A DNA stretch of 64,000 nt from Haplodiscus bocki (Eukaryota): positions 2,046,001 through 2,110,000 of the forward strand of contig OZ296654.1 in the NCBI GenBank assembly GCA_965655095.1. The letters are read 5' to 3'. Position numbers and translations under genes: made by a program. The notes under the pieces are model-generated. The model made no database searches and was not told the DNA's origin. It was given only the letters and a program-made list of their open reading frames with translations. How positions within the stretch are numbered: position 1 is the first letter of the stretch; the number at the start of each line of letters is the position of its first letter. Below, one piece after another: positions 1 to 45,949 of this stretch.

Positions 1-2460
1 TGGCTTGTCGGTGAGACATTTGGGATACACTGAGCAGCCACTCTGCTCGTGCGCAGCTTTTTTTAGTTTAAATATTGGGAACGACTGCGGCAATCACGCC
101 GAAAAGGCCTTTACGCATTCCAAGCAGGCTTTATAATCTTTGGTGTAATAACTTTTACGGTGGTAACTTTGGCATTCTTCCGCGGAGTTGGTGCCGGAGT
201 TTTTGAAACTCACTCGATTCTTTGAATCCTGTGATTAGCCTCGATTGTGGGTTTTACTTCGGCTATTGGTGCGATTTCTTAGGATTTTGTTCCAACTGCG
301 GCTCTGGCTTTGATCAGCGTAGCTGGGGGACTCCGACTGATGCGATCGGCTGCTGGTGCGACGTTCACCACTGCGGCTTTGTTGCAGAACTGCTTCGTTC
401 ATCTATGACTCGTTTAACTTCTTCCTTGATGTTTAAAACTCGATCGGAAAACAGTTCACCTCGGGACGGTGAACGGTCGGTCAAAAGGTTGACATACGCG
501 CGGAGGTTTCCAGCTGTTGGCCGTGAAGGTTCAATCAAGAATGCATCCCAAGTGCTAAACTAATTGCCTCCTCAATCACTGTTGGGTTAGATTTTCGAAC
601 TTCCCGCCGAACGACGGAATTGGCCAACCCTTTGATGAATGTGGTGAAGAGGAGCTAATTGCGCAAATGGCATCGTCGGTGTAAGCTTTTCCTGCAAGAT
701 GAAGGAGTTTCCAGTAGAAAACGGATACATATTGGCCAGGTAGCTGGCGAAAACGCTTTACTTGGGCTTTCAAAACGTCGGAGTTCGGTTCGTATTGCTG
801 CCAAAAGAGACGTTTGTGTTTTTCGTAACTGCGTTTTTGAGCAGTGGTGAGGGACCGGTAAAAAGTGAGAGCTTCAGCGGTTAGGCGGGCAGAAAAGCAA
901 TGCGGGCGCGGGTCGGGAGTCAAAGTGACGCAATGAGAAAGCGTGGAAACAACTTCGAATTGAGTGAGAAAGTCTTCCACATTGGTAAGACCTGTGAAAG
1001 ATGGCGGTAAAATGTAGAAATAGTTAGGAGCAGAACCACGTGGAGTCATTCTGAATGATACAGAATGGTTTTAGAGAAGCAAGTTTATGCGACAACTAGC
1101 ACACTTCCGTGGACATATAGTCAAATACTTCACCAAGTTCGAGTTTGTGCAAGGCACTAGCAAACACAGTTTCATCGCAATAGGTAGATATGTCCCGGCG
1201 TAAGTTTTTAGGAAGATGTGTTATGAATTGTTCTTCAGACGACTAGTTTGTAGCAGGCGAAGCACAAGCGGCGATCAATGGGTAGCACATTGAAGTTAAT
1301 GGACGAGCACTGGGAACTGAAGATGAGGAGGAAACCAACGAAAATTGAGCTGAATGACAAAAGTGCCGATCATCAGAGAGTTAACTTTTGAAAACAGAGG
1401 TGCAACGTGGAAGTCAATTCGAGAAATAGGAAACAGGTGACGCAAGTACACAAAAGTGCGAAAAGGAAACGGTCAGTAGATTGGATTGTGAATGGAGCCG
1501 GAGCATAGTTGTTTTTCGAAACCGAAAAAAAACTGGGCATACAGGTGGAGGCGTACGAAACAATACGGTTGGGGGACGCAACTTTGGTTCTGTAGGAGCT
1601 GTTAAAATGAAATGCGAAATGTTCAACAAGACGAAGCGGGGCGTGATTGTGACGGAACTTGACCTCAAAGCGGTACGGACGGGGGTGGAGCTAGGCAAAA
1701 TGGCTGCGGAGCGGGTGAACGGGACGGCAAAGCAGTCGGTAGGGGCTGAGTCAAAGCCGAAAATTGCACAGGGATGATCCAGGTGACGGCTAACAACAAG
1801 AAATGTTGGCAGTTTTTTGCGGGAGTGAGATTACAGAACTGCCAACATGACCAAGTGAGTGATTCTGGGAAATGGTTAGCCTAGTGTTGTCGGAGAAGTA
1901 TGGTGTAAACAAAGTTATTTGACGCCGGTACCGGTTGATCGGAACCTAACTAAGAAGCGAGCAGGATTTGTGTTTGAACACACGGAGAAAAATAACACGG
2001 GATGGTTAGCGGGACAGGACCGGAAGAAAATGGAAAACACCGTTTGAAAAACATACAAGGTTACCTTTTCGGGGCGAATAGAGCTACATCGCAACGACGG
2101 TTCGAAAATTTCAACAGGCACTTGCGTTAAACTAAAGAAACAATCTCAGTGAAAACACTGGAACTACGCTCAGCCGCAAACTAGCTGTTCTGCTACGATA
2201 GAAATGGAAATCGTCTACTTTAAGGGTTTTTTCAAAAACAAATTTGATCTGCTCGAATGGCGGTACTCTGCTTGAAAAAGCAAGACCTAACCTATTCTCG
2301 CCTATTGAAAAGCGGTGCAGAGTTCGAAGACTCGGGGAGCTCTCAATATCCAGCTCAAAATTCAGAGCAGTCAGAAAAAATTAGTGCGTGATGTTGCAAA
2401 TTCAACAAAAAAGGTGAAAAGAACTTGATGCAGCAGGTTCGCAAAGACACTGTCACCAAT
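1..2460 (-). mobile_element. Ty3/Gypsy LTR retrotransposon, 5' internal portion (PBS, leader, gag); continues beyond the left window edge
   Basis: PBS-like TGGTGACAGTG on the minus strand at ~2448-2458. Gag-like ORF at 576-1049. Decayed zinc-knuckle remnant at ~80-130 (C-L-E-C, frameshift, FRRDCRS). Confidence 0.75.
60..1049 (-). pseudogene. gag: Gypsy gag (capsid-like plus zinc-knuckle remnants), frameshifted
   Basis: ORF 576-1049 reads PPSFTGLTNVEDFLTQFE...RLTAEALTFY...RQLPGQYV, the typical retrotransposon gag pattern. It continues after a frameshift as TTFIKGLANSVVRREVRK (FxxGL motif). Confidence 0.75.
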
Positions 2461-3320
2461 TTTTATGGAAACTCTTTGCGTGGGTAGCTATGTTTTGGTT
2501 ATTTTGGGTGAGACTTGAATTTTTCTTTTTTTTCTAGGTGAAAAAGTTTTGTTTTTTTGCAGGTTTAAAGAGTTATATTTGGGAGATATTGACGAGTAAC
2601 ATTTCTTCAGTTAGTTAAAAACGGAATGAATTCAACAATTTAGCTCCAAAATTGCTTACACTTTCATAATAAAAAGGACTTCCAGCTGTATAAATTTTAT
2701 TGCGAACGATAAGTACTTTAAATCTAGGCCATCAATAATTGCCGATAAGCGGCGTTGTCTTAACGTTTCGTCAAACGAACAAATATATTCACTGCATGCA
2801 AGGCCAATAAAAATAAGTTTAAAGAGTAGTGGTTATACGAGGGTAAATGATCAATATTACTGCAAAACAATTTAGCACGACAATATTTTAAACTAAATAA
2901 ATTGAACAGCCTGGAAAATGAAATGTTCGCTCGTAAAAAAAGAATTCAAATGACCTAAAAGAACTAAAGTGACTTTTGGTAATTCAAAAAAATAGGTTGT
3001 TGACGAAATTGAATAAATAATGTCAGTTATTAAATTAAAGTGTTTTGTTTTGATTGTTACAGTATAAAAGTTTTTCAGATTTATTTTTTGAAAATTCAAA
3101 TTGTTTCTTCGTTTGCCATCATTGTCATAATTTGGGGAGCGTTGATTTTAAGGGCAAGTATGTATTGTTGTTTGTTGCAAAACATTCAATCATTTTAGCG
3201 GAATCCCTGGTTTGAGGTGTTACTGTCAGCTTTGTGATACAAAATCTATAGGATTTTTTTCAATTTCTTGGATGTGCTTAAGTTTAATTTCTACCATTGG
3301 ACTGTGTACAAAATGGGCGA

Positions 3321-3480
3321 GGGTATTTTCTGTTAATTGCCCCCCCCCACTGATTTAACCCCCCCACACACCATAATCGATATGCGAAGTAATAAGCGGC
3401 GTAATGTTTTAACTCACGCGCGAGTGAATTTAGGCCCATTAGAGCCGAGTTCGCTCTGCATGGGGGAGGGGGGGAGTTAA

Positions 3481-3524
<44 letters not shown>

Positions 3525-3579
3525 GGGGGGGGGGGTTAAATTATGTGTGTGGGGGAGAGATCCATTAACAGAAAAGATC
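3321..3579. mobile_element. MITE / non-autonomous DNA transposon with ~45-bp imperfect TIRs, 8-bp TSD and internal (GT)n/poly-G
   Basis: Left end gggtattttctgttaattgccccc...gatttaacccccc is the inverted match of right end ggggggttaaatt...attaacagaaaagatc. Identical atgggcga flanks both sides (3313-3320, 3580-3587). Confidence 0.8.
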
Positions 3580-5039
3580 ATGGGCGATTTTGTCTCTCAT
3601 GTATTGTATGAAAAACATGGGAAGCAAAATTTCACTCTTTAAATGTTGGTCAATTGAAGCGAACTGAAAATAAGATCGATAATTTTTGATCACGCTTTTT
3701 ATCTAGTCGGTGCCTGTTGTTTCGATGACGTCACAGATTTGGGCAGTAGTCAAATTAGATGAATTAGATTTGCTTTCAGTTGCGAACACTATCTAAGAAG
3801 GAAGCTACATCATTCATCTTATCTCTTTTCCCTTTTGATTCCTATTCATGAAACAAGATTTACAGTTACTGATTTTCAATGTAAATCAATGCCCACAAAG
3901 CTAATCTATTTTGTCCGAATTCACAATTCGTTTTTTGTCTAAAAAACTGTTCTATCCGCAAATTTTATTCATAATGCATAATCCTAAGCAAAAAGGCTTT
4001 GTTGCAAAACTCCTGCTGATTTTATAAAAACTGTAACTGAAGCTCTATTTTAAAAACCGCCTAATTTATGGTGCAATCAGTGGGTTCCAAAAGCTCTCCC
4101 TGTGAAAAAAGACCAATAATTTTGACGCACCGATAAAGTGACTATTCAAAATTGCTTGAAATGACAATCTGCAGATTATTATTTATAAACTTGTGATTAG
4201 AAATTCCTTTTCTGGAGTGAGAGCAAGGAGTGAGAGTTTGCAAACTCGTCAGAAACGCGGAACACAATGTATTTAGCACTACACAACCATTTTCTACAAT
4301 TTTGTTAATTTTTTTCAATTATCATATTTTCTATCTAAAACACTCTATTGGTCTTTCGTGCAGCTCTTATTTGAAGATGAAAAGAATCATAAAAAACAAA
4401 AAATGTCAAAAGTCATTCACGTTTCTAAAATTATCTACCAGTAACGATATTCTAACCAATTTAGTAGAAAAGCAGCAATTTTCAGTTTTTGTTGTAGAAC
4501 AAACCTCCCGCCTCAAAGAAATCAAACATTTCTTCTTCTGCTCTGTAACAACAATTAGTTGAGCTTGAGGATTTTTTTTGAAAAAACATGATTTTAGACT
4601 AACGAACATTTACTGTTGTTTGAAGTTAAGTAATTGGTTTAAAAAAAAGGACCGTTCACTGAGCAAGATTGTCTTTTTCTGCCAGTGGTTTTTTGTTCAG
4701 AAGAGGGAAAATATGTTGGGGTTCAATTGATTAATAAATTTTGGTTGAATAGATTAGGGCTCTTCTGAAATACCCAAACACCCTTTGTAGATCCAACCGG
4801 AACTGGACTCTTATGAACTGCCGCCACTCGTTTAAGAAGTTTGCACCGTAAACAACGCAAAAATGAACAGGTAGCGGCCAAAAAGAGGCCGTTTGGACAG
4901 GACAAGAAAACGAAGCATAGGCCGGTTTCAATAAACATTCTTCCTTTTGGTCAGAAAGTACTTAAAAAAACGAGAAGCCGTGAAATATACAAACAATAGA
5001 TATATTTTTTAAAAAAATACAAACATGGAAAATATGATG

Positions 5040-13789: not shown

Positions 13790-15050
13790 CCTAGATTACC
13801 GACAGAAGAAATATTATATTCCGAGGCTATGAGCTTTCGCCCTTGTGTCAGGAAAAACATTCATGCTTGTAGGCCTGGAGCATTTACCTCAGGAACTGGT
13901 AATTCTAATTCTTAGGCGGGAAGAGCGAAGCTTTTCACACAAAGATCATCAGTCTATTGACTTCGTTTTTGTTTCGCTTTTTTTCATTTTTTTTGGCTTT
14001 GTGATCTAGCGAGACAATCCTTTTGACGAGGCTTTGCTCGCAAAATTTGTCACTATCGGAACACCTAAACTCAACCCCCAAATCTCCGTTCGAAAGTTTT
14101 ATAACGGGGGTATTTGTTATTCATAGTACGGCAAAGTTCTCAGCTATTTTCTTAACAAGTTATTATGTTCAATTTTATTATCAATTGATCTTTGCATCTG
14201 CGGAAGTTTATTTCATGACTGAAGGTATTAAATTTCAAGTTTCTAGAAGTAGGTGTACGTCCAGTGAGAAAGCAAGATGCATATTAAAGAGTTCTGAACC
14301 CAGCGAGCACGTTGGCTGATGGCATACTTTGTGTCAATGCTAAGAAAAAGAAATTTTTTCTTTCACAGAGATGTTCCTATCGCCCCGTTTATTCGTTCAT
14401 CAATCGTCTCTAATAACTTCTGTGGACATCCGCGGAATAGAAGACAGCTGTAGTGAAGGTGGCACTGTTGTAAGGCAAATAGAAACTTGCCACAAACTTT
14501 ACTAATCTAAATGCAGATAAAGGACAATACAGTTCCCGACCACGGAAAATACTCATACGCTCGTACTATTCGTTCGTACTATCCAATCTTTGTACCGGAC
14601 AGCCGGTGTTCGCACAAGTAAGGGTGAATTCATCGGGTGCATTGACGAGAGTAACTTTCGACCTCACCCTCTGACTACTGAAGATCTGAAATCCTTGTGT
14701 AAAGCTCAAGCTATGTCTCCAGTGGTGAGTGTGAATTCACTCACTATCGGATTACATAAATGCCCAATGAAAGTTAATTATCAAATTGGTCAAATGACTA
14801 GAACTTCGAGATAATTTTGTAGGTTTTTTCGGGGCTTTTTACTATCTCTCTATCCAATTTTTTCTGATGCTGCTCAGTTGGGACAACAAAAGGGGGCAGG
14901 TTATAGCTTTCCCAGTTTTGCAAACTCGGGATGGTCTTTTGTAAGCCCAGTGTGTTGCAAAAGTTGAGGTAGGGTGATTTCGAATATTTGACCCAAAATC
15001 AAACCTGTTCCTTTCCGTAATCTGCACTGCAACGGCTTAGCCTTATGTAT
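13790..15050 (-). repeat. Putative 3' LTR (boundaries approximate; probably contains an insertion at ~13930-14470)
   Basis: Collinear similarity to 26030-26620 and 27965-28080, e.g. ggtgagtgtgaattcac...ttatcaaattggtca vs ggcgagtgtgagttcaa...ttatcaaattggtca. Confidence 0.6.
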
Positions 15051-15449
15051 TCCATTGCAAAACACGCTGAGTTGGTCTTCGATGTCCTCGTCCCGGGTGA
15101 AAATGATTGATGTTCGTCAACTGATCTTCGAAAGCTTTAGCTGAGTTGACTCGAAAGTGCCTAAACAGGATTCACTGTCGTCTGTTTGAGAAGGGTGGGT
15201 TTCGCAGTATTTGACATTGATAAGTAGGGTTGTGTGGTTAGGAACTGTCTCTGTCTTGGCTCTCTGCTGCACAAGATCCCGAGAATTTAAAGGATTGATA
15301 ATTTAGTGGGGTACAAACCAGTTCCGCAATCATTGCGCGATTCCTTGGTAAATTTTATGAGAATATAACCACGAGTTCTATGATTTACTGATTCGCATCA
15401 ATTTGACTGCATCAATCAATTTTATTCCACAATTCAAAAACAACTACTG

Positions 15450-18400
15450 CATCAAGCATAATTTGTGGCGCTCCTGGTCACTTCCTTTTTTGTGTTCTTT
15501 TTGCTGTTTCCTTTTTTCTCTTTTTCCACTAATTTTGTTTCTTTTGCTCTCTTTGCAGATGTCTCTTCTTTTCTACAGAAATTTGTTTTTGTTTTTTCTG
15601 ATCTTTGTTCAGTCTGCGGTTGCTGCCACAAACTTAGGGTGTACGACAACTACCATGGATATGAATGGAAAAATTTTTGCTTTGTATAACACACGGTTGT
15701 GATTAAAACGTGTTTTCTGCTCTGAGCGCTGTTAAAAGTCCTCTGAACCCAGTAGGGCTAGGGTCACATTTTCTCGATGCCCAGGCCATAAAAATTATAT
15801 TCAAGACAACGTCAGGAGGCAGCACCATTGGCTTGATAGGCCGCATCAAAGACTTCCAACTCACACTTCGTCTTCAAAAATTAACGGAAACTGCAACAAA
15901 ATAACCAACTTCGAACGTGTATTCAATTTATTGGTAACTTCAACGCGTTGCTATTGAACAAATAATAGTGCATTGGTGATGGCAGCTTGGCATGAGAGGG
16001 CGATATTACCCGGCAACTTCAAGATTTGAGGCAGCACCATTTTTCGGGAATTGAGCTTGAAGTTCTCTCTGCTTGGTCAATGCTAAGCACTCATCGTTCA
16101 TTGGTTCGGAATATATTTTCGGTTCTCCTAAGATTAACTTTCTTCTCAACTGGTGCCAGGAATTTCTGTCCTTTCAAGGGGTACGCCCAGTTTTTTTGGT
16201 CTAAGCAATTTTTGGTGTCAGGCTTCCCTGTAGGGACCATTTCCATGTGCCAATGTCTTCCGGATTTGTCTTCATCAGATCGTCCTCAGGCAGTTTCTCA
16301 CAAGAAATAGCTCGAACAATATCTTCCTGTGCTGTACTTGGAGCTAATGACTTTGTTGACTCTACCATTGTACTGAGGAGACACTTGACACTTCATGTGT
16401 ACACAATTCTCCTGTCTACCATTCAATTGTTTTTTTTTGTTTTTCGAGATGGCATTTGTTGATGCCGTCATTCCTTCAGTAGAATCTTACATCCTTCAAA
16501 CGAAATTATTGGAATGATGTTTTGGTAGCATCATATAGGTGTCGGGTCTTGTTGAGGAGATGCTTTTGACGGTGTTAGTGGCGCGACAGGTCAACCTATC
16601 TCAACTGATCTACTGCAAAGGCTCCAATTTATCCCTTATAGCGTTGAAAGATCAACTTCATTTCCTTGTTGCTCCATCTGTCATCTCTCTGAGTCCGTCC
16701 ACCACTCCCGAAGGGCTTGTGAACCCAATTTGAGGCCATGCCAACTGTCAAGTTGCAAGTCAGTTGATTCTGCAAGAAGGTGAGATGATTGCTTTTCCAT
16801 TACTTGACTATCAGGATCAAGGGTCGTGATGGTTACTTCAGGGTAGTGATGGATTCGTAAACACTCAGCCTCACCGGTAGACAGAGGTCCACTGCGTCAT
16901 TATACAGAACGATTAACAGTTGCGAAGGGCCTATGAAATCTGGAGCTTCTTCATTATTGGTCTTTTCTGACTGCGCTTCCAAGAAACCTGCTTGAGTCAT
17001 TATTGGTGAGTATATAGAGCAGCAAATCTAATGTTAGGCGACTTTCCATTTTTCTTCAAGGGCCACACTGCTCTGTAGGTGTTGTCTTTCGAACAACTTC
17101 GATAAAATTCCGAACGTCGCATGGTGGCTTTCGTGCAGAGAATGAAATTAAGGATCGAGCGGTGCTGGCTGAAGTGGGAATTTGTTGGACCAAGCCCAGA
17201 AGTCCTCCCGTCCAGGAGTGTTCATGTCACGAAGCATACTTGTTTAATGAACCCTTCAACTTGCCACTTGACAGCGTTCTTTTCAGCTGTTGCTTCTTTT
17301 TCAGACACACTTTAATTTCTCTCCACAAAGGCGGAATTCCAAGTCCACTCCAGTAGCATTATCCACTCGTTCACTTCATCTCAATGATTATTCTCAGCCC
17401 CACACTGTAGCATAGTGGCTTGAAGGCTCAAACACCAATCTAACACACTGTGTGTGCGTATCCAATCTGTGGTTAGAGTTTGGGATCCTTGTGTGATGAT
17501 GGTCGCTCTTTGGGTCATATTCACCAGATGTTGCACTACTGCCGAAGTCAACCATTCTAAGGAGGCTTGTTTCAAGCCAGAAGTTTTGCAAAATGTGCTC
17601 AGTTTCCTTGTGTATGGAAGGAACTTCTGCGGATTTTGTTCAATGTCACCTGAGGGAGGCCTTGCTTTCCAAAACAAAACTCTACCTCAACTCTGAAGAA
17701 TTCTTCTAGTCTGTGTTCTCGACAGCACGAGGCCATACATTTTCCGTGGTCGTAAGTTGTCACGTCGCAGAAGGATAGTTGCCATTTTGCGGTGGTACTT
17801 ATGAGCATTAAAATCTGTGAATTCTGCGCAAAAAAGTAGAAAACGCTAGATCAAGGGACGTGGCGGTTCGGGGCTAATCCACAAAATGGATGCACAACTT
17901 TCCACCATCGCGACGTTATTGGAATGAAACGTTCTTGAATGACGGAAAAGGTCTTGTGGAAACAATGCAGGAAGTATAAGTGTCCAGAATTGATGCTATG
18001 AAGACCCTAAAGTTTCCGGCTCTGGTTAACAACGTGTTGATTTTTGTGCATTGTCTAACCAGTCCTCCAATGGCGTCCCCTCTATCGAAGATCCATCGAG
18101 TCAATTGATCCGAAAAGTTGCTTACAACGATGACAGCTGGCACCTGAGTTGTCCATGTGGCGTAACAGAAAATGTCCTTGGCAATAAGAGAAACCATGTG
18201 AGATAGCTTAATGGTGGCAAACGAAATGCACGGCTTATCACCTACTGGAAAAGAATTTTCTACGCCATGCTTCAAATTGGAGTCTGAAAAATACCAAGAT
18301 GTTGAATCTGTCAGGTTCACTTTTCTGAGTCGTTGCAACCAAAAACAGTTTTTTTTCCAGATTCTCGAAGCGAGGGCTCCACTGATATGTTCTGTTTAAT

Positions 18401-20545
18401 TTGTTGGCATTCAGGCAGATGAGCGTGGCAGTCTTCTAAAAATTGTTTTTCGGCCTGCCCACTCCAAATATATATATATGATCAATGTTTTGTTGCGGTC
18501 CATTCCTTGCATCGTGAAGGTTCTCATCGCTGCGATTCTAGACCTTATGTTGTCCAATCGAAATGTTTCCTCTGTTCTGACTTTTATGTCCGTTTGTAGG
18601 AACAACTTGCAGCATGCTGCAACGTCCGTCTCAAAACTTGTTGGCCCAAACTTTTCTGCGTGCTTCTTCTCAGTGGCTCCATGCTCGTCAGTCATTAGTG
18701 AAAACCAAAGTCCCTTGACTTTTTTGACCTCAGAATGTGTTCAGGTTTTGCCTTGTTCACATTAATTTGATGTTAGTGGAAAAGTTATTCGTTGCAGTGA
18801 TGGGCATTGTTGCTCTGGCGTGTGTTCAGAGGATGAAGTTGCTTCTTGGGACTATTTCTTTTGGATCACCCGGTCTGAGCCAGGGGCGAGGCTACGGATG
18901 TTAAGCAGCGGATTGCGAGTCAATTACACTTGAATCACTAGCGGTTGGTCTCTTAGGTTTTCTGCGGTGCTGTTTTTTTATCAAGCCTTCCGTCTTCTTT
19001 ATCAAAAGAATTTGTGGAGTCGTTCTTCTTTATCCATCTGAATGTGGATATCACATGATGTCTGAATGATATATCTTCCAGGCAAATGCTCGTCTATTCT
19101 GTCCAAGAAAATTAACCAGTTTGAAGTAGCAGTACCGTTTCTGGCCCTTCTATTTATGAAATCCGGCCTTCGAGGTTCTATCCAGTGGCAATTGTACATC
19201 ATGGCCCCGCCATATCCTTATCTTTAGTACATAGGTCACGAAAAACCGCTTTAATTTGATTTTTTTTTCATTTTCTCTTTCATCCACAGATTGCTTGGTA
19301 ATTCTTGGTCCGCCAGCTAACTGCGTGAGGAGGTCTTAAACTGCAGCGGCTTCGTCAGACTCGAGTCATTTATTAATTCAATCACAGAAGTTCATTCCCC
19401 TCTTCTAATCTCTTCTGTTTGTTTTCTTCCCCTCGCTCCGAAGATTTTTTCTTCTCGTTGGTTAAAAACTGTTTCCCGATAACAGCCAGGATGATCCCAG
19501 TTTCCTTCGAGCAGGACTGCTCCTCTCATTTTTTCCAATGTTGGGACTTTTTTTGAGGATTCAAATTTGTCCTTTCAGATTCTTTCAAATCTGTAAAAAC
19601 TAAACTAGTTCACACAGTCTATAAAGGCACTTACAGGTTGTGCCCTGACAAATAGTATTCCTCAGGTGGTTCTTATGAAAATTTCAATGACAGTTTCTTT
19701 CGAGGAGTAAGGCCATTGATCAGGACTGGACGTTATGTTACATGCGCAAAGCCATTCGGGCTTCACGCCGGTCGTAAGATCAATCCGCTGCTCCGAGGTG
19801 TTTTCAATTTCACTAATGATTGATTTGGTTAGTAGGATTTGTTCAACTATTGGACAAATTGTCTACTTCGTTTTTCTTGTTTCTTGATATTCATTTTGAC
19901 CACTTCTGTCTTAGTTTCTCAGTTCAACTGAAATCGATTATTAGGATTGCATAGATCCCGGTATCCTACAAAATTTCGACTAGATGTTGATACCACCACA
20001 TGATTAGTTGCATCCTCGTTTCCACCCCAGTACTGGAAGTAGGATTCCGTTTATGTTTCTGCATTCAACTGTCTCAGCAAGTAGTCCAAGTACATCTACA
20101 AGATTTTTATGAATACGGCTTCCTTCAGTCAAGCGGTGTTAATTTTTAGGAAGACGTATCCTCGGGTCCAAAGTGAGTAAAATTCCGGTTGGTGGGTCTT
20201 TTCTTGAACTCTTTGGCTTCTCCAAATTCCCTAAACAAATGTTTAGTCATTCTTGAGGTTAAATGATTTTTTTTCCGTGCGGCCACTCAATGCTGGATCC
20301 TCATAGCAATTGACGGGTTTGTGATCCGGATTTCTGCGGAAGCAGAGTTTTTCTCCAGTGCTAAGAAGATTCAAGAAAAGGTTGCCGTTGAAAAGTCGCA
20401 AGGTATGTTGCTTGTCTGACCAGATTTCCCGTTTAGGGGGCAACATTAATAATTCAATTCGATGAACCGGTATGTGTGACCCAATCCTCCATTGATCGAT
20501 GTGCCAAATCTTACTCCGAAAATCTTTAGCGCATGAAGGTCACTA
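15450..20545 (-). pseudogene. Decayed accessory ORF of the Gypsy-like element: CxxC zinc-finger-like start and SGNH/GDSL-hydrolase-like segment
   Basis: (TGA for C)PSCAKDFRSKIWH...SH at ~20545-20475. ORF 17916-18338 contains WYFSDSNL (block I-like), ISFATIKL and PAVIVVSNFSD (block III-like). Several further minus-strand ORF fragments follow. Confidence 0.4.
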
Positions 20546-21989
20546 AATGACTTTAAGAAAAAAAAGAGATGCCTTACTTCATAGCAATGTTTAGAACGGA
20601 ATTTGCCCTTCGTGATTTTGTGCTAATTCTGCTATTGTTCTGCATACGACCCCAATATTTTGTCTTGGCCCGCAACTACAGTTTTGATTCAGGTTAATTT
20701 TGATTTTGAGAGTTTTAGATAAGAATATTTTTTCAAATCGAACTTCAAGCCTGTGCCTTCTTGGCGCTTTTGTTTAGTTTCTTGCAGGTCACTCCGAAGG
20801 TGTTCTGATTGAAGTTGTCTTCCGGTCCTTAGTTTGAACTATCAGCCAGGGTGAATCGAACGGTTCTCACATTGTACTTTGTACTTTTTTTCTTCTTTCC
20901 AGCTTTTTACACATGCGTTCCCAGTACGTCAGCAGCTCCTGGTGAGCCTGCTTTGGGCTGGGGACTACAGCTCTCAAAGCAAAAACGTTTTGCACCCTAT
21001 CCATTGGAATGCAATTGACTGTTTGCTCGAGTTTATATCAGCAGTGGAATTGTTTGTATGCTGTTGGGCAGCGAGCACGATTTGTTTGTGGAGGCTCGAC
21101 TGACTCATGGCATATTGGGGATGATGTTGGCCGTCGTCGACAGGCATTTTCGACGAAAATAAGGTGTTGGCTGCCATTGAATTTTTGTTCTTGATGCGCC
21201 TTGACTGTGCTGATTATCCTCGTCTACTATTTCATTTCCAAACCCCGAAAAAAACTGAATTCTAATCTCCAACGTCTTCTGGATGATGGCATTGAGGTAT
21301 CTTGTTTAAAGTTGGTGCTGGCGATTTGCATGTAAAAGTAACTTGTTGGGGAGTAGTCCAACTTTTTGAGCAATCTGACCGTTTCTTCTTTTTCATGTTT
21401 CGAACCGGTCTTCTAGCTTTTTCATTTCGAAGCTTGTCGAAACTGTTGTACTTTGAAATAGAACTTGGTGCTGGAGCGTAATTTAGATCAGCAGGTGGTG
21501 AGGGTTGAACTTTTTCAGCAGGTAGATGTTTCTGAAGTAAAACATCGTATGGTTTAGCCGAAAAGTCACTAAAGCGATATACATCGTAGGGTAGATCCAG
21601 CTCGGTCAAATTCCGTTCTTCTTAGTTATCACAAGTTTCAGTAAATAATCTTGCGGATAACTCCCATGACCATAGTTGCTTCTCAGGTTGAGTGGCCGAA
21701 GATAACAAATGTTTTTCAGAAGAACTAGAAAGAGTGAAAATGCTTATGTAGCCACAGCAAGATTATTCTTTTTTTGAGTGGGTAACTGACGGATGCGGGG
21801 TCTGCCGATTGTACCGTTAACTGGAGTCATGTTACTTGGACTATCCAGTGGTGGGGCTTCTGAGAGTAGAGGTTTTCCCTTAGATGTCTTAATCGATGCC
21901 TGTGTTGGTTTCTTCAACAAAGTCATTGGCAAACGTGTCGAAGTACCTGCTTGGTGAAGGCATTTTCATCAATTTTCCAGTCGAGGGAT

Positions 21990-23680
21990 TTAGAGGCACT
22001 CGAAGTGTACCTAGAATCTATTTGACAAGATTTCATGCTCAATGTTAATGAAAAATAATGGTCCTCGCCAGGCATATAACAGTTTTCTTGTTCATGTAAA
22101 AGTGGGATGACATGCCAAATAAAAAAACGCTGTCTCCTTGTTCTACCATTTCCGCCGGGAGGCGTTGTCAAACCGTCGTTTCTAGCTAATTAGAGTTTGT
22201 TAATGAACCCCGTGTGCTAACTCATGAACGGCGAGTGGTTTCTCTGGCGAGTAACACTCTGTCGTGTTGCGAAACATTGGTATACGTTGCGAAAGGGAAT
22301 TGGATTTTCGCGTCCCGTCTGCAGCATGTAGAGCGGGGAACATCAGGAGTTGTGTCAAATGCTGTTGTAGGCTCCAAGAACTTCTTCGAGCAATAGGTTT
22401 GACTCAATCTTTCTCCTACTATAGTTGACAGAGGTGTAGCAATTTCTGGATAGTTCCTTCAAAAATGTCAGACTGAGGTGATCCAGATATTTTCTAAGTT
22501 TTTGCTCAATGTTCGCGACTAAAAAATCGCACTTCGTGTCTCTTGTGTAATTGCAGGTTTTCAGGCCGGCTACTGCCTCTTCGTTGTTGCTTTCTAAGTG
22601 GGTTTCTGCTTCCAGATTTGTATTGAAATACAGGGTATTTTTTAAAGTGTGACTCCTTGCACTTATGTCTCCTTTTCCGACTTTTACTCAGAACCTAGGA
22701 AAATTTTCACCGCACGAGTTTCACTGAGCTAGGTTGTGATTGTCAGTGGATTGAGAAATTTTGCTTTTTGTCGTTCTGTTCGTCAATTTTAGGGCAGAGT
22801 TAGCAAATTTTACTGTTTTGAGAACAGAAACGGAATCCAATAGTTTTGTTGGGTAGGAGGCTTTTCGCCGTTGTCATTCTAATGGAGTGATTGGCTCTAG
22901 TCTCAATGGTTCAAAAGCGTTATCGATCGTCAAATGAATTTTTAATCAAAAATAGTAAAACTTTAGCTATAACAACGCTTGGTTGTCAATTCTCATGAAC
23001 ATATTGATGAACGTGACAGCTGTGTGCTCCGTACTTCACTTGAATGGGATTCAAAGACTAACACTCCTAGTGCTCTGGATTCGGTATCTTCTTCGTTCCC
23101 TTTTTGCTCTTGATGAAAAAGACATGACAAAGCAATTTTGCTTTCGTCTTGCGTATGTGTGCCTTGAAGTAGCGTCCTTCAACTGTGGCAAAAAATAATG
23201 CTACTACGTCAGATAATTCAATCCTGATTTCTTCAATGGCACGTTCAGCGTTCTCAGACCAATGAAACCTCGAATTTTTTAGCTGCATTATCCCGAGTGA
23301 TTTCGCAGTATTTGTTAAATCAAATAATTTTGCCAACTTTTTGTCTTTTGTCAAGTTGTTGCACTGATGCTCTTTGATGACGAAATCCCTCCAGCTGATG
23401 TCTACCAACAAATAACTTTGTTTCCTGAATGAACCCCAGAATCGAGCAGAGTGTTGTCTACCATTAGGACATCAGCTTGCAAATTGAATCCAATTGCTGT
23501 GGAGCACTCTTTATTTGCTACTTTGAAAAACCGAATAGCCAAACCGTTGCTTGCGCAAAAGATTGACGTATTGAAATTAACATGCTGCATGGAACATTGC
23601 GGGCTAAACTGCGCCAACTCGAAATTGTCAGCACTAACAGTCCAGCTCCTGTGTTGACTAATCCACGTAAGTTGATAGCT
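21990..23680 (-). pseudogene. pol: Reduced pol: aspartic protease, RT connection/RNase H remnant, integrase C-terminal GPF/Y module
   Basis: LRGLVNTGAG (DTG to NTG) at ~23640-23670. KNSRFHWSENAERAIEEIR...ALFFATVEGRY in ORF 23067-23411. SLNPIQVKYGA at ~23026-23058. KRRFD...TRKLLYAWRGP...VHFECL at ~22185-21990. Confidence 0.75.
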
Positions 23681-23799
23681 TGCTACCTTGATGACATTCT
23701 CAACACTAATGTTCCATTGTGACTTTTCTAGGCCTCCCTGGTTTGCAATAGGTCTAGTTCGGAGGTTCCAGCAACATGATCGTTTCTTTAAAAAGTGAA

Positions 23800-25564
23800 T
23801 TCTGATTTGAAATCAAAGTGTATGACAAGCATGGCTCCTATGTTGACCTCTATTGCATCAATGAATAGCAATACTCGCACTGTTCAATCCACTTTCAATG
23901 GTGTTTCGCTCGTCCTTCAATCACTATTTGCTGAGGTTCAAACTTCAAAACTGTTTCCAACTTTTGACGTGTAGCACGGGATTCCACTTGGAGCTCATGG
24001 AAAAGACATCCTTCTAGGAAAAGACTGGTTTGTTCCTTTCCGAGATGGATCATTTTCTACAATTGAACACCCGTCAGCAATCAACGGCTTTTGTTCAAAA
24101 TTTTTGTGATCAAATATGAAGTTATAATGATTCTGTTGATGTGGTTCTATCCTCGGCATTCTTTTTATTTCTTTTTGATGATAGTACCAGATTTAGCTTA
24201 CTCTTGCATAAACCTCCGAATCAACAAGAATAGCAGACTTTAAATGGCCATATTTAAATCAACTTTTGCACGAAAGGTGAATTGTTGGAGGAGTCTCCGT
24301 TTCCACCCTTTCCACTTCAAGAATGCTATTTCGATCCGGTTGATATTAGATGCGGCATTTGCAGGCTTTAGTATATTTACACGAGTGCGCGGTTAATTGC
24401 GACCCTTGAAGAGTGTCGAATATGAAAACGATTGTAACACAGGGATTCGTGCTTTATGCCCTGGTTTTATCAATTTTTTTCGTCTTTTTTGGAGATTTAG
24501 GTGGCTCCAGTGATCGCTGAAGTTTTTCGCCTAATCCTGCTTTGGGTGCTGTAGTGTTTAGGTCTTTTGGTTCTAGCTAGATCGGGTATGCAGGAGTTGG
24601 TTCAGGACGTTGTCCTTTCGTGGATTGTTCCTTCTCGCTTAGTCCCACTGACTCTATGTTAAACTTTCTCAATCTTTCTTGTTAAAGTTGTTGGTAGGTT
24701 ATCCAGTTTTTGTTCGTGTACGTGCTTGCATGCTGTAGCCCGATGTATTTCGTCGATTTTAACCCCCGCTATGAATCATTGCATTGTTTTATCACGACGA
24801 ATTCAAGGCGTCTCTTCCGGACACGCTTCGTTCCTCAACACCTTTAATTTTACAAGTATTACATTTCGGATTCTCACTGTTTCTTTTCTCCAGTGGTTAG
24901 GGGGTTCCTCATTTGGGCTCGGCTTTTGCCCACTTCTAATGTTCTCTACAAAACTTGAAAGATTTGTTCATGTTGTCCGAATTGACATTCGGGCCTGTTC
25001 AAATTTTTTTTCACGCCTCTCAATCCTGGTATTTGATCAAAAGCCACGCAATATTGGGTTTTCAGCTCACGTTTGTGATGCTTTAGAAGTTTTCAAATTC
25101 ACCGTTGTGGAATCCTCTGGAGGCTTTTCGCTCCACTTCAATGTCACTTCTTTGCACACTACTATGAAACTTTTAGTAAACAATTCCAATAGCTTGTCAA
25201 TTACCGACTTGTTGGTGCTGGCGCTAAATTCGTCCGCTCACTCTTCAGCATATTGGAGTTTTTGGGTCAATTCCGGCACTCCAAGCACCAGATCAATTGT
25301 TTAAATTTTCTCTAAGATTTCTAAAAATAAATTCAGTTGTCCAGTGCTAAAGATAGCTGGCGAAGAAAGCTTTATGGTCAAATTTTTGAATCCATTTGCT
25401 TCCACGTAAGCTTGTGTTTGCGTCTGACGATCTGTAGCGGTAGCGTTCATTTGGGTCAGAATTAAATTTCTGAAATTTCGATTCGACAAAGTTGAATCGA
25501 TATAAATAATAGCGCCTGCACTTTGGTCCCCATTTCTTGGTCCAAAGGCCCTAGGATATGGCAA
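23800..25564 (-). pseudogene. gag: gag-like region of the Gypsy-like element
   Basis: Minus-strand ORF fragments lie between the PBS and the protease, with a FIAGL motif at ~24760-24775. The plus ORF 24726-25304 is its antisense shadow. Confidence 0.55.
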
Positions 25565-39897: not shown

Positions 39898-40805
39898 CTG
39901 AATGAACCAATATAAAAGAACACACTCAATGACAACGAAAATTTCGTATCAAACTGCCATCTGCTTTATTTTTGACACTAGTTTTCCGCACTTCGACTTA
40001 TTTCCAAAATACAAATTGTACAGAAGTATCGTTCGTGACTATTTCAGAAGACTCTCCTTTGGAGCGAGCTCAATAGACGAAAAGAAAAAAAACCAAAGCG
40101 TCCAGTAGCTTCCGACTTTAAACTCTCTTATGCTGGATTTTCATTACCAGGCTAACATGGAGCAAAAAATCCAAGATAAATTTCAACTTTAAATTTACGT
40201 TCCAAAGATTGCACCCTGAATTTCATATCTAGGAACAAGAGAAATGTTGTCGCGTTAAAACTAAGGCTTAAGCAGATATATTATATTTCTCAGATACGTG
40301 CAGTAAGCTATTAAACGGGAAATGACTAATGTTTAACAAGAGAACTGCAGACGTTGTTGACTAACCTGGGAGCTGCGGGACGGATAAAATAATATGCAAT
40401 ATAAAAGAAAGCTGAAAAGATTGGAGTTGCACAAAGGAAGGAAAAGGAATATTTCTAAATGCGTTGGAATGTGGTTCAACGCATTGACTCAATATTCAAA
40501 TTCAGACATGCACCATGCTTGCAAGATCACGTGACTGGTCACCTGGTATAAATTCATTTTGTAGCTGGTACAGGAAAGCGGCCCGATCATAACTTACTTA
40601 CTCGCTTACCGGACGGCTTACTTCTCTTACCTTACCTTACTCTCTTACCTTACTCTCTTCTTGCTTTACTCTCCTGTTCCCTTTTACTGGGATAAATCTA
40701 ATTAAAAATTCTCTTCTCCCTTCTCTTCGGACAAAAATATTCCAAGTCCCATCTTCCTTCTGACCTAGAAAAAATTCCTCCTTCTTTCTTCAACTTCAAT
40801 AATCT

Positions 40806-41033
40806 TGCCATCGGAGTATAAACGGTGTCTTCTAACACTAGCTTCGGTATTAACGTGTGCTGATTCCGTGGATGAACTTCGGCTCTGAAACAACAGCGAA
40901 TCTTAATTTGCACGACTCCTGCCATCGGAGTATAAACGGTGTCCACTAACGCTAGCTTCGGTAATAGCGTGTGCCGATTCCGCTGACGAGCTCCGGTTCG
41001 GAAGCATGAGTGGATCTCAAACTGCACGACCCC
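40806..41033. repeat. Tandem duplication, 2 x 114 bp
   Basis: tgccatcggagtataaacggtgtc at 40806 and 40920. Confidence 0.9.
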
Positions 41034-41416
41034 TACGAGGTTCCTAGGAAAGAAAGTTGACTGTACTCATAGATCAATTCTCACCTCGTCTGTGTCCGTG
41101 GCATTTAGAATTCATTCTAAATTGCAAGATACTTATTAAATATGCAGAAACCGTCCCTTTTCCAAAATTCAAACTGTTCCTACCGACTAGATAATCTTCA
41201 TTGACATTGCTATTTGCAGCGCTCTCCTATTGGTCAATTACTCGATTGCTATATAACAGGGTATAAATACCCCGTACTCTCTCATACTATTCATTCGCTT
41301 GCTACTACCAACTAGCCTATTTCCACGAGGCGAAACTCTTCCGCTTTCCTCTCATCATAATTTTGGCATTCAATCATCATTTGTCTTAACCAAATTTCCT
41401 CATCACCTCGGCGAAG

Positions 41417-41685
41417 ATATCCAAAGAATTTTTCGCCTGCAAAATTGTCTTAGCCGCAAATCATCAAAATCCTGGATAGATTCAAAAACTTTTGCGCCTG
41501 CAAAATTGTCTTAGCCGCAAATCATCAAAATCTTGGAAATATTCAAAGACTTTTTCGCCCGCAAAATTGTTTTAGCCGCAAATCATCAATGTCCTAGAAA
41601 TATTCAAAGACATTTTCGCCTGCACAGTTGTCTTAGCCGCAAATAATCAATGTCCTGAATATGTTCAAAGACTCCCTCGCCAGCA
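41417..41685. repeat. Minisatellite, ~4.3 x 61 bp
   Basis: cgcctgcaaaattgtcttagccgcaaatcatcaa recurs at 61-bp period, with units starting at ~41431, 41492, 41553 and 41614. Confidence 0.92.
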
Positions 41686-44600
41686 GTGAAGCAGCAAGTA
41701 GTATCCCAGCCGCAATCAGCAACCATCCAGCAACCAGCTGCAACCAGTAGCAACCATCAGTAATCAGCAGTAATCAACAGCAGCGAACATCAACACGACC
41801 GATGCCAGCTTCTAACGTAAAAGACCATATGGCAATTTCCCCCTATGCTATCTTGCGTTCACAACCTCAGACAAGGCTCAGTAATTCCCCTCTCCCATAC
41901 GTGCAGTCATATTTCCTCCACGGTTCAACATGTTGACTTGTCACTGTTTATAATTTAATATTCTTTTGTACTCTTCTTTATAGCTCACAAGTCCTTGCCT
42001 GAAATCACGCAATCCCTTTGTTCGCACGGTTAAGCAAGGCACGTTAGTGAGACTTTTAAATAATAGCCGTCGCTACAACGCAGCAGTGCTGACTGAGTCA
42101 ACCGCCTGCACAACTAAGTAAATAATATATTTGCAATACCTCTACCACGTGCGACAATGTCTCCCGAACTGGCAAAAGTTTCAACATTTTTATTGAAGTT
42201 TTTTTATCAATCCGAGAAGGATAAAATAAATTGAGCGAGTTTTAGAAACAAGGAAGGTGGGGCAAAGAAACTGATTCCGTTTTATTTTACTTGAGCGATC
42301 GTTCTGCAGACTCTTGCCGCTGTTTGTCCCGTTTCTAATTCTCGTGCTCTCTCCTCCCGTTTTCTGCACTTGTGCACACATCTCTCATTCTTATCACTCA
42401 GAACGTTGCCTCAGAACGTTCATCACGCCGAAAGTTGCCATTGCCTTCATTAAAATCAGTCACCGACACGTAGGAGCACCAAAAAAACAGCGACCTACTC
42501 AGAGGGAGCTTTCTCTATCTTGCAGAGTCATTTAACAAACTAGCAGGTTCTCAGGGATAAAAATCCTTCCCTAATGAACAAAACCACTCGAAAACGTTTT
42601 TAAAAACGGAGAAAAAACCCAAAAGATAGTAGTGTTCGGTTAAAATCAACAGAGCGTGTCAGACATCCCCGAAGTTTGTGTTTGGTTTTGATAGATTGTG
42701 TACGTTTTGCCACCTTATATGCTCATTTCCTCCGCTGAAAAAAATCAATAGATAGGTCCCAAAGACAAAAAAGACTCACGCCGTCGTATTGCGATTTTTG
42801 TGGTTTTCTATCCAATCTGAGACTTTCTGACTGAGTAAGAAAACATTGAGCGGGATCGAATAAAGAGCAAAAAGATTACTTCTGCTGCCTGGACATGCTC
42901 ACGAAGCTGTTAGAATGTGACGAGACCAAAACTTTCTGATACGAAAACCACTTGGAAAACTCAGTTTGACCAAACTAGATTTTGACCTTTTTCCTTATTT
43001 CGGAGTGACTATTGTACGTGATGAAAATCTTCCTGCTTTTCTGAGTGACCTTAAACTTTTGAATTTGGTTTTCTAAGAAGCTGAAAAAACGTTTCTGATG
43101 GATTTTTCCGATACTTTGGCTTTTCGATGACATCGTACAATTTGAAACACTTTGATTTTTGGGGCTGCTTCCAGACAAGACCGTTTTTCGGTTTTACCGA
43201 AGTTCCAATGCCCACTGCTCTGAAAGGAAAACCGATGTCGAAAAGGTCCTAAACTGTTTTTTGGAAAACTTCTTTTGATATATTAGTAAGCTCAGTTTCG
43301 CCGACACTCTCAAAACCATGATTTGGGAAAAGATAGAACGATCCTGTGAAAAATTGGCTTTTTGTTACCTCAGTGAACAAAATTTAATTTTGGCAGCTTC
43401 CAAAACTCATGGAGCGCGAGCTTGGCCGGCTGAAAGATCTCCTTCACAATTTTAATTTAAATCTCCAACCATCTTAATTGAGCTAGTTGCCGAAATATTA
43501 TTACACTTTGCATTTCGGAATTGTTTGGAGCAGAAGTGTCACCTTGCAAAAAAAACATCTAAAAATTTTTCGATTTTCCCGATTCCCATCAAAATTTGAA
43601 TATAGGTTGACTATAACCGGAACTTAATGTGGTACAAAGTGGACCTTGATGGCGTCAGTAATCATGGGGAAATGAGACTTTGTGATAATTTGAATAAAAA
43701 ACGTTTTCTTATTTTGTTTTTAGCTTGAAAATATCACAACATTGTTTTTCACCATATAAATAGTTTACCACTTGCGTGTTTGTAACATCGTTAAAAAGGT
43801 ATTCACAATTAGTTTATCATGATGTGCTCCGTTTTTTGATAGCTACAATCAGCTACGATAAATAGGTGTTTTTCGCCGAAAAAGCAGGCAATTTTTTAGC
43901 TTCTAATTTTGTGCCTTGGAGGTGTATGAGTCTGAACAACCGGAACGAGTTGGCAGCAATTGGAGCCTATTTAGTACACGTTCGCAAGTCTGTACGAGGC
44001 TGTGTAGCCTACTAAGTTGGTCGTATAACGATTAGAGCATTTATCTTGCGGCGAAAAGCTGACGCAAAATGATGCGGTATCCAATTATTAACTGAAGAGC
44101 AAAATTCCCTACAGTCTATACGGGAAGCACCTCTCTCAGACCACACGCCATTTGCCTGTGACCGCAAGTAAATGTTCTCCAAATAGCAGGTAATTCACAG
44201 GTGATTTAACCCGCGGTGTGATAGTCTGTACTTGCGGCTCTTATTGCATGTGATCGAAGGAAACTCCTCTCATTCAAAATTTCTACCCGGGTGGGCTCTG
44301 AGGTACTGCATTAAAATAATACATTAAAAAGTGCTGATTAGTTTTTAATGGAAACGTCTGGCAGGCTCGGTACATAACGTCGGGCAACAAATGATTCGGT
44401 ACAGCACCACAGAAAATCCTGCTCTCACCGATTTGTTCGCAGCTTTGTTGCCGGGATCTCATTGTCGGGCTCTGGAGAGTGTGGGAAGTAATTTCTGCGG
44501 AATAACTGCATCTGAAAACATTTAGGCTTAGCCTACTAGCAACTGAAAACCTAAAGTTGCGACGTAAAATAACTGTGTGCTAGAACCTGATGGTCGTCAA

Positions 44601-45949
44601 TATTTACTCTGAGGCTAAAAACTGATTTTCTCAAAAAAATTCCTGGAATGCCCATAATATTGCAACAATTAAGGAGAAAAGTTCGAGTTTCTGATCCTTT
44701 GACATGGAATTCTCTTTTTCGATCGAAAGTTTTCCGGACTTTACATTGTCCATTGCTCATTTGCATGCCCAGCAGGTCAAAAAAGTACCAAAAAGCGGGA
44801 CTTCGAATTTTTCATCCGAAGTGAAAAATTGACTTGGCCGCAAGGTTTCCATTCCAGTTAATTGACGTTTCCTTCGTTGGAAATACGTCCTCGAGCTACC
44901 AAGTCAGCCGAAATTTTTCGATTTTGTGACAACTGCTTCAAGGTAAGTACGCTGGCGTCACATGAATGACAAAGAGCATTCTGGTGGGAATTATCAACTT
45001 TGTAAGCATATGTAACTGCAAGCATTACCTCAGTGCTTGTGGAAATCTGTATCTCTTCACAATGGACGAAATCAAAAAGGCAGCAATTTGCAAACGGCCC
45101 ATGTTGATGATAGTCCGCAGTCTCAAATTACTCGAAGGGGGACGTGTGGTTTTCGATATTTTTCTTAATTTCGGAAAGCATTTACCATCCAAACAAAACT
45201 GCAAAAACAACTATTGGGGTGATATTTTGTCTTTCAAAATGTTCGGCTTCTCAAAAATTTTTGTCTAAACCTACATTTGGAAAAAAAATCTCCCTTACTT
45301 TTGCTTTTGTACCCTTTGGTACGTGTTATGCTCTGATACTGTGTATCTTATTATGTAAAGGAAACACGCTAGTGGTATAATCCTACACAGTTAACCACAG
45401 CCTATCAAATATATCAGCTCACATCGATTGAAAAAAGGACTATCGAATTTGTTTATAGTTGGGGTTGTTTCATGGCGGCGTTGATTTTTAGTCGTCGAAG
45501 GACTTTGTGGAAAAAACGTTGCACGCAAAGGTTACCAGATGTCCTGCGGAAAATTGTAGCGGTAGCTTGTTTGCGATGAGTGAGATGTCAAAGTTCCAAC
45601 TTTATTGAGATTCTCCGTTATTTTACCCCAGTCGACAACGCATGTAATTTTTGTATGATGCTGCTTGTTACCAAAGACTTTCTGAAAGATTTTCAATTAT
45701 TCATATATAAAATTTTTCATGCCTAAATTTCGTCTGTTAAGCTGACATTCTCAACGTACATAGACAGAAAAAAATTGTGATAACGTAGCCAGCCATGTTT
45801 TATGAAGATGTAAACACCAATCAATATCAATACAAGAATGACTGTTTTCCGTCCAAAAAAATTTTGAAATGAAAATATTCAATTCAGTAGTCGGAGTTTT
45901 TTCCTTTTCATGATTTTGCTCATGACGCGCACACTTCGCATACTGCAGA

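Follow-up and report, generated by a model that had tools for sequence, protein, structure and literature searches.

A decayed Gypsy retrotransposon family of Haplodiscus bocki, with a likely macrodomain-type end of Pol and a separate ORF3 containing an SGNH-like segment

The window, a stretch of 64,000 nucleotides from Haplodiscus bocki, contains a degenerate member of an old family of Gypsy LTR retrotransposons; the copy occupies positions 14,475-28,083 on the minus strand. Its 3' LTR (14475..15062, about 585 bp, with at least 41 genome matches) is the direct-repeat partner of a 5' LTR interrupted by a later insertion of about 1.3 kb (26661..27969, strand not assigned), which has an 8-bp direct repeat on both sides. 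The first 118 bp of the 5' LTR (27966..28083, minus strand) start with TGTGATG and share 75% identity with the 3' LTR across 116 nt. The remainder (26196 to about 26660-26667, minus strand) shares 62% identity across 335 nt, and its terminal bases have been lost together with the start of the primer-binding site. Other copies display a TGTAATG-like start and an ATTACA-like finish, both decayed in the window, so that the family has the two direct LTRs with TG...CA ends typical of Ty3/Gypsy elements. A primer-binding site starting with TGGC follows the LTR in one copy (L064), with decayed forms in two others (L008, L110), and a short G-rich tract, corresponding to the polypurine tract, precedes the 3' LTR in four (L107, L113, L117, L100); both are decayed in the window copy. 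This copy is old, and no matching flanks indicative of a target-site duplication were found around it in the window.

The internal region follows the Gypsy order of protease, reverse transcriptase (RT), RNase H and integrase (IN), the protease motif being placed by eye. Decayed gag with zinc-knuckle-like remnants (approximately 23750..25650, minus strand, by eye) is common to copies L027, L034 and L062, and is followed by a decayed aspartic-protease motif region (23400..23720, minus strand). The RT core is missing from the window copy and present in five others (L027, L100, L149, L162, L176); in L100 RNase H comes after RT. The connection/RNase H remnant (22850..23300, minus strand) scores 58 vs 35 on the reverse strand, and RNase H reaches 87 in L099 and 98 in L168. 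At a score of at least 75, RT is detected in 5 of 44 stretches, RNase H in 3 and the IN core in one (L136); reverse-strand control scores are mostly 31-58, with two on IN at 97 and 102. The integrase remnant (22050..22850, minus strand), about 770 bp shorter than in copies L097 and L132, has a GPY/F-like motif at its end. This tail, readable as W-x-G-P-L near 22090, and the two LTRs confirm the Gypsy-like assignment of the original prediction.

That prediction also placed a single extra coding region of about 5 kb between the integrase remnant and the 3' LTR. The position holds, but the gap to the 3' LTR measures about 7 kb, and the interval described (15450..20545) brings together the last part of Pol, which reaches about 19,800, a brief spacer, ORF3 and 3' UTR sequence of about 0.8 kb. 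The extra region consists of two parts, a Pol tail and a separate ORF3. Downstream of integrase runs a coding linker (20330..22050, minus strand) whose reading frame stays constant from about 21,800 on, followed by a macrodomain-like domain (about 19930..20330, minus strand), a spacer without codon periodicity where many copies break (approximately 19600..19800, minus strand), and the decayed ORF3 itself (15900..19600, minus strand), which codon periodicity delimits to about 1,230 codons or 3.7 kb, its start not placed exactly. The 3' UTR (15063..15900, minus strand) includes an A/G-rich stretch; the G-rich tract beside the LTR in other copies is decayed here. The PSC..H..H stretch taken for a zinc finger at the head of the extra ORF turns out to be an off-frame artefact: across copies, most readings of its Cys column are Arg or stop, and its frame contains 74 stops in 982 codons vs 21 in 980 in the conserved frame. 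It falls inside the coding linker, outside ORF3.

The extra region is common to dozens of other genomic copies, in which it is colinear and adjoins the same LTR. One of these (L060-L063) is colinear with the window from the 5' LTR through to the 3' LTR, two (L149, L162) contain RT and the SGNH-like segment of ORF3 together, and 12 of 39 other loci with this segment have a match to the window LTR downstream on the same strand, within the 10 kb fetched; for L061 the LTR match is reached via L051. Across copies, third-position diversity is higher and stops are fewer in a single frame over about 21,800-19,800 and 19,600-15,900. The in-frame pN/pS ratio is 0.62-0.68, against 0.87-1.05 in the other frames and 0.83-0.89 for the 3' UTR control. 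Because codons are periodic and pN/pS falls below that of the 3' UTR, ORF3 and the Pol tail were once under purifying selection. Initial searches with the window DNA or protein gave no second copy, which would suit a region that had inserted into the element separately or was open by chance; this reading is already refuted, and is scarcely credible, given the colinear linkage with the element's pol and LTR across many copies and the in-frame constraint. The coding capacity of the region, its linkage to one element and its selection among copies are thereby borne out.

The macrodomain-like domain, which the original prediction did not mention, matches a TARG1/OARD1-type profile (z 6.0, with none of 60 shuffles as high), while 11 other windows give z ≤1.4. 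In hhalign the segment aligns with a macrodomain template over 125 columns and beats 25 of 25 shuffles, at a probability of only 3%; it receives 23.6 against a bacterial SGNH template and 20.4 against the macrodomain template. The template family matches PDB 4j5q (E 8.6e-21), and the segment itself has no match in Pfam, PDB or Atlas. The domain is likely the end of Pol. Similarity extends colinearly over the whole domain, as in human TARG1/OARD1 (PDB 4j5q, 4j5r) and in the intact macrodomains of other retroelements of the genome. By contrast with these, the T-K and G-C-G-L-D motifs are unmatched in the hhalign alignment, where the loop register is uncertain. We take these motifs to be catalytic in TARG1 (Lys/Asp and a Gly-rich diphosphate loop), and an activity of the window domain appears doubtful. 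Macrodomain-bearing retroelements are numerous in the genome (2,598 candidates; 150 of 150 scored matches pass the Pfam cut-off); the Pol tail agrees with this abundance and hints at conflict with host ADP-ribosylation.

ORF3 has no homologues in Pfam, PDB or homologue searches. Its SGNH-like alpha/beta segment (17780..18320, minus strand) is defined by motif columns across copies, with stretches resembling block I (about 18310-18275), block II (about 18230), block III (about 18140) and block V (about 17865-17840), all on the minus strand. The motifs WYFSDSNL, ISFATIKL and VIVVSNFSD occur in the order originally given for blocks I-III, within a stop-free frame (17916-18395), and from DSNL on they sit in the family-conserved frame (window segments 18284-18183 and 18149-17979). 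A clear block V had not been recognised, which is correct for that frame; a corresponding stretch nevertheless exists in other frames at about 17930-17840, and it escaped notice because the frame read loses register past 17979.

On this sequence evidence an SGNH fold is probable for the segment. Its five strand-like hydrophobic runs are arranged, together with the motifs of blocks I, III and V, in the order and at the spacing of SGNH proteins, and a 95-column hhalign alignment is colinear across blocks I-III and strand 4; both observations speak against another kind of alpha/beta domain whose likeness to SGNH would be coincidental, ORF3 then being a different sort of accessory protein. When the four blocks are placed automatically, each lands on the columns already picked by eye, and the template His is aligned with Arg (z 2.6, 2/200 shuffles). 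The macrodomain-like window, however, equals the segment in this test (z 2.5), so that the test may detect merely an alpha/beta protein. Profile, database and folding tests, all weak, null or of low confidence, likewise leave room for the coincidental likeness. The segment gives z 2.3 (2/60 shuffles) against the host CR1-type SGNH profile and z 0.3 against a mixed SGNH template, where a different ORF3 window gives z 3.1. The hhalign probability is 0.4-1.8% against host SGNH proteins, with 1 of 30 controls higher in one run, and 0.7-0.9% against the bacterial or mixed templates, no better than for other ORF segments; the positive control reaches 97.9%. Two AlphaFold models have pTM values of 0.34 and 0.30. 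We consider a coincidental resemblance a minority possibility, although one of some substance.

In 42 copy readings, block I retains the nucleophile Ser (T24 D19 S24), its Gly column being Thr in 24. Block II reads S24 and P17, followed by C15, R9 and Lys 5, and thus lacks the oxyanion Gly, whereas host SGNH proteins have Gly at this position in 5 of 6 rows. Block III (N17 F21 W14 D20 H23) has no Gly column and hence no G-x-N-D, and block V (L24 R16 P13 H20 E23 L23 A17 Y19) does not display D-x-x-H: the His position is occupied by Arg 16, His 5 and Cys 4, the Asp position by Glu 23. The segment has likely lost its catalytic histidine, in line with the original guess that it is catalytically dead. 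A His two columns past the block V Arg, kept in 20 of 42 rows, could serve as catalytic base. ORF3 would then resemble the GDSL ORF3s of the Vesta elements, which are reported to retain their catalytic residues (PMC5408684), and would remodel lipids as a working esterase built on a Ser-His dyad. The kept Asp-Ser of block I (D19, S24 of 42 rows) and this His fit such an enzyme, which is still improbable: neither the block II Gly nor the block III G-x-N-D is kept, the His has no Asp before it at D-x-x-H spacing, and the block alignment has Arg at the His position.

The possibility that ORF3 stands in for Env, so that the element can pass through an infectious stage outside cells, arises from its location in the env position, and is mentioned as a formal possibility for the rotifer elements (PMC5408684). 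The C-terminal transmembrane anchor of an envelope protein was not found; a hydropathy scan detects a TM-like stretch in none of the five segments (highest 19-column mean 0.57-1.41, values that averaging over decayed copies flattens), in agreement with the original prediction, in which no such segment was recognised. There is therefore nothing in favour of the env-substitute role proposed with it. Moreover, most of ORF3 is missing from several copies, among them L099 and L168, whose junctions are nearly identical, and the rotifer GDSL ORF3s are described as free of TM and coiled-coil domains and probably auxiliary (PMC5408684). An Env-like function is thus very improbable.

We instead favour, with about even confidence, an old Gypsy family with a Pol ending in a TARG1-type macrodomain and an ORF3 whose pseudo-catalytic SGNH-fold segment would act as a scaffold. 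Such an ORF3 would be soluble and cytoplasmic and take no part in Env-like membrane fusion. By analogy with known SGNH proteins, its pseudo-esterase pocket and a basic surface could bind acidic phospholipids or RNA, and it might aid the assembly or placement of the ribonucleoprotein particle inside the cell. More speculatively, and with a low chance of being right, two captured enzymes may both have become binding modules: a non-catalytic TARG1-type macrodomain at the Pol terminus, reading or shielding ADP-ribose marks, and an Oskar-like SGNH domain of ORF3 with a His-to-Arg change, binding RNA or membranes and steering the particle to the germ line.

Few LTR elements are on record with a non-env ORF3 of enzyme fold. 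This family joins them, and suggests that such folds can stay under selection after catalysis is lost. Its significance is restricted, since no intact copy turned up, the fold is not proven and nothing supports the idea of an env substitute.

Among known systems, the OSK/SGNH domain of Oskar, described as a hydrolase-like region that binds RNA (PMC6191285), offers a model for a non-catalytic role, the SGNH region serving as a binding domain. Oskar differs from the window element in being a host germ-plasm protein (PMC6191285), and the Pfam OSK model has one genome match (E 0.57), which lies outside all fetched copies. Closer in kind is the ORF1p esterase of ZfL2-1, reported to bind acidic phospholipids and proposed to help in RNP assembly at membranes (Schneider et al., 2013, PMC3905857); here, as in other CR1/L2/RTEX elements, the accessory protein of a retroelement carries the SGNH domain. 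By contrast with the window ORF3, it has an active Ser-His-Asp triad, a gag-like position and membership of the non-LTR class (PMC3905857). In tblastn, the genome's intact CR1/L2-type SGNH ORFs show no similarity to the SGNH-like segment of the window. An SGNH domain in an LTR element is not unprecedented, since a GDSL/SGNH ORF3 is published for the Vesta LTR elements of bdelloid rotifers (Rodriguez, Kenefick and Arkhipova, 2017, PMC5408684). Like these, the window element is of the Ty3/Gypsy type and has, downstream of pol, an ORF3 that is not env, with a probable SGNH-type domain and no TM segment. The Vesta GDSL ORFs are described as about 1.3 kb long, with catalytic residues kept, in young elements (PMC5408684), whereas the window ORF3 is about 3.7 kb, has likely lost catalysis, comes after a Pol tail of macrodomain-like sequence and belongs to a family with no intact copy found; the two are likened by architecture.

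The additional coding region (15450..20545) in the env position of the minus-strand Gypsy element is real, forms an integral part of that element and was once under selection. The Gypsy, Pao and CR1/L2-like elements of the window point to an animal host. Direct searches of the genome (a 1.5-Gb eukaryote assembly) with the window itself returned no second copy of the region. Matches to its 3' end led to a colinear copy on contig C6, and the better-kept frame of that copy, used as a query, gave 52 matches at 49 distinct other loci, all of which were fetched; two further protein searches added 16 loci. In a DNA profile many loci are colinear across the whole region, and others retain the first kilobase and continue directly with the 3' UTR. 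The same LTR lies downstream, inside the 10 kb retrieved, in 12/39 other loci with the SGNH-like segment. Colinear copies and a shared downstream LTR mean that the objection that the region is a separate nested insertion fails, and its assignment to the element in the original prediction holds.

Some copies are rearranged. In L099 (3503-5151) and L168 (3039-5293) the macrodomain-like part is present and is followed by a jump to the end of the accessory frame, ORF3, at nearly equal model positions (1153 to 4738 and 1164 to 4750, respectively), and this near-identity suggests a subfamily that arose by deletion and was mobile without the bulk of ORF3. L116, L121 and L125 are short copies too. At L114 (4161-4694) and L124 (7213-9881) a second piece of the ORF3 region lies in inverted orientation within or next to a copy. 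Two copies on C6, L061 and L097, lie ~160 kb apart in opposite orientation with 79-85% protein identity, and are probably a later duplication.

The coding signal was followed in an alignment of 96 pieces on the sense strand. Third codon positions are more diverse than the other two (mostly 0.54-0.63), diversity is usually lowest at the second, and stops reach their minimum in the same frame. Five segments show in-frame pN/pS of 0.62-0.68; out-of-frame values are 0.87-1.05, and the 3' UTR control gives 0.83-0.89. Picking the frame path by similarity biases towards low pN/pS, but this bias is absent from the UTR control in every phase. Periodicity keeps one frame from ~21,800 into the region (23/44 upstream pieces), drops out at ~19,800-19,600, returns, and stops near 15,900. 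The interval is therefore composite, consisting of the final part of a long coding tail behind the integrase, then a spacer, ORF3 (~1,230 codons) and a UTR. Because noise obscures whether the frame runs on unbroken from the GPY/F motif to 21,800, fusion of this tail to the integrase is only likely. Outside the SGNH-like segment, ORF3 comprises a charged N-terminal part and ~600 C-terminal codons. No intact copy was found among 40 loci, where the longest stop-free frames within ORF3 are shorter than 200 codons. An unnamed database protein (P0003, at L117:4232-4720) was rejected as an intact homologue, being a gene call on this family's decayed frame in which TGA is translated as Trp.

The 3' LTR of the window copy spans ~14,475-15,062, and the 5' LTR is split into 27,966-28,083 and 26,196-26,667 by a 1.3-kb insertion (26661-27969) with flanking 8-bp direct repeats (27970-27977 and 26653-26660); inspection by eye showed no terminal inverted repeat in it. 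Identity between the two LTRs is as low as 62% over 335 nt and 75% over 116 nt, which marks the copy as old. At least 41 places in the genome match the LTR. Copies start TGTAATG-like and finish ATTACA-like; some are followed by a TGGC primer site and preceded by a short G-rich tract. Weak matches at 44342-44856 and 35229-35396 (58-73% identity) are probably older solo-LTR remnants. A Pfam search of the window's pol frames gave zero matches, and the protease and GPY/F-like motifs were recognised by eye. Frameshift-tolerant comparison of 44 stretches with intact Gypsy Pol from the same genome (score 75 or more) detected RT in 5/44, RNase H in 3/44 and the integrase core in 1/44, RT preceding RNase H in L100. 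The window copy is without the RT core, and its integrase is ~770 bp shorter than in the copies L097 and L132. Elsewhere in the window are a decayed Pao/BEL element (29213-31842, plus strand; Peptidase_A17, E 8e-19; DUF5641, E 1e-15), a T-rich repeat of 9-bp period (32980-33338) and tandem repeats of 114 bp (40787-41034) and 61 bp (41417-41721).

The zinc finger proposed at the start of the region has to be abandoned: the PSC..H..H frame is shifted by one base from the conserved one, does not retain its Cys, and contains 74 stops in 982 codons vs 21 in 980 for the conserved frame. Just downstream, the conserved frame (~20,330-19,930) resembles by eye a TARG1-type macrodomain. A template was built from intact macrodomains that other elements of the same genome carry, one member of which matches human OARD1 (PDB 4j5q, E 8.6e-21). 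Aligned end to end, it scores z 6.0 against the segment (0/60 shuffles; 11 other windows at most 1.4); in hhalign it covers 125 columns and exceeds 25/25 shuffles, at a probability of just 3%, and the same segment scores 23.6 over 60 columns with an SGNH template. Pfam, PDB and Atlas gave no direct match to the segment. From these comparisons the segment is likely a TARG1-type macrodomain. This genome has such domains in great number within long open frames (L190-L219 plus another 120 places; 150 scored matches, 2,598 candidates), in at least two sequence families.

The SGNH-like segment (~18,320-17,780) was read in 42 rows from 40 loci, with leave-one-out scores of 137-630 vs 34-57 for reverse strands. 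Its five hydrophobic runs follow the order and spacing seen in SGNH proteins. In block I, Asp (19/42) and Ser (24/42) are kept, preceded by Thr (24/42); block II reads S-x-P, then Cys or Arg where Gly is expected; and block III has N-F-W-D-H in place of G-x-N-D. Block V (Leu24 Arg16 Pro13 His20 Glu23 Leu23 Ala17 Tyr19, of 42 rows) aligns to the template L-H-[LP]-x-x-x-G-Y with Arg opposite His; His (5) and Cys (4) are the minor residues of that column, as would be expected from CpG decay of an Arg codon. Fold tests gave low values: hhalign probability was 0.4-1.8% against host SGNH and <1% against bacterial or mixed templates (positive control 97.9%), and the global profile reached z 2.3 with the host template and 0.3 with the mixed one. 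A block test gave z 2.6 with blocks at the expected places, the macrodomain-like window also scoring 2.5, two AlphaFold models had low confidence (pTM 0.34 and 0.30), and fold searches gave nothing informative. An SGNH fold is on balance the probable reading of this segment and, if it is right, catalysis has probably been lost. Intact SGNH ORFs of ~200 aa also occur separately, in two families (L069-L078, L080, L081), directly upstream of CR1/L2-like ORF1 sequences identified by eye.

ORF3 had been proposed to substitute for env. No TM-like stretch occurs in any segment (highest mean hydropathy 1.41, in values that decay flattens), which argues against an Env, and that proposal is not upheld. 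The esterase of ZfL2-1 is reported to bind acidic phospholipids, with a proposed aid to RNP assembly (PMC3905857), and the hydrolase-like region of Oskar to bind RNA (PMC6191285). By analogy with these two proteins, ORF3 would most likely serve the element's particle as a binding scaffold inside the cell. The literature searched, which covered few subscription journals, contained neither a report of the His-to-Arg form nor one of Gypsy Pol carrying a macrodomain. The closest counterparts are the Vesta LTR elements of bdelloids, which resemble the present element in carrying GDSL/SGNH-type ORF3s with no TM domain, but differ in that their catalytic residues are intact (PMC5408684), whereas ORF3 here has probably lost catalysis.
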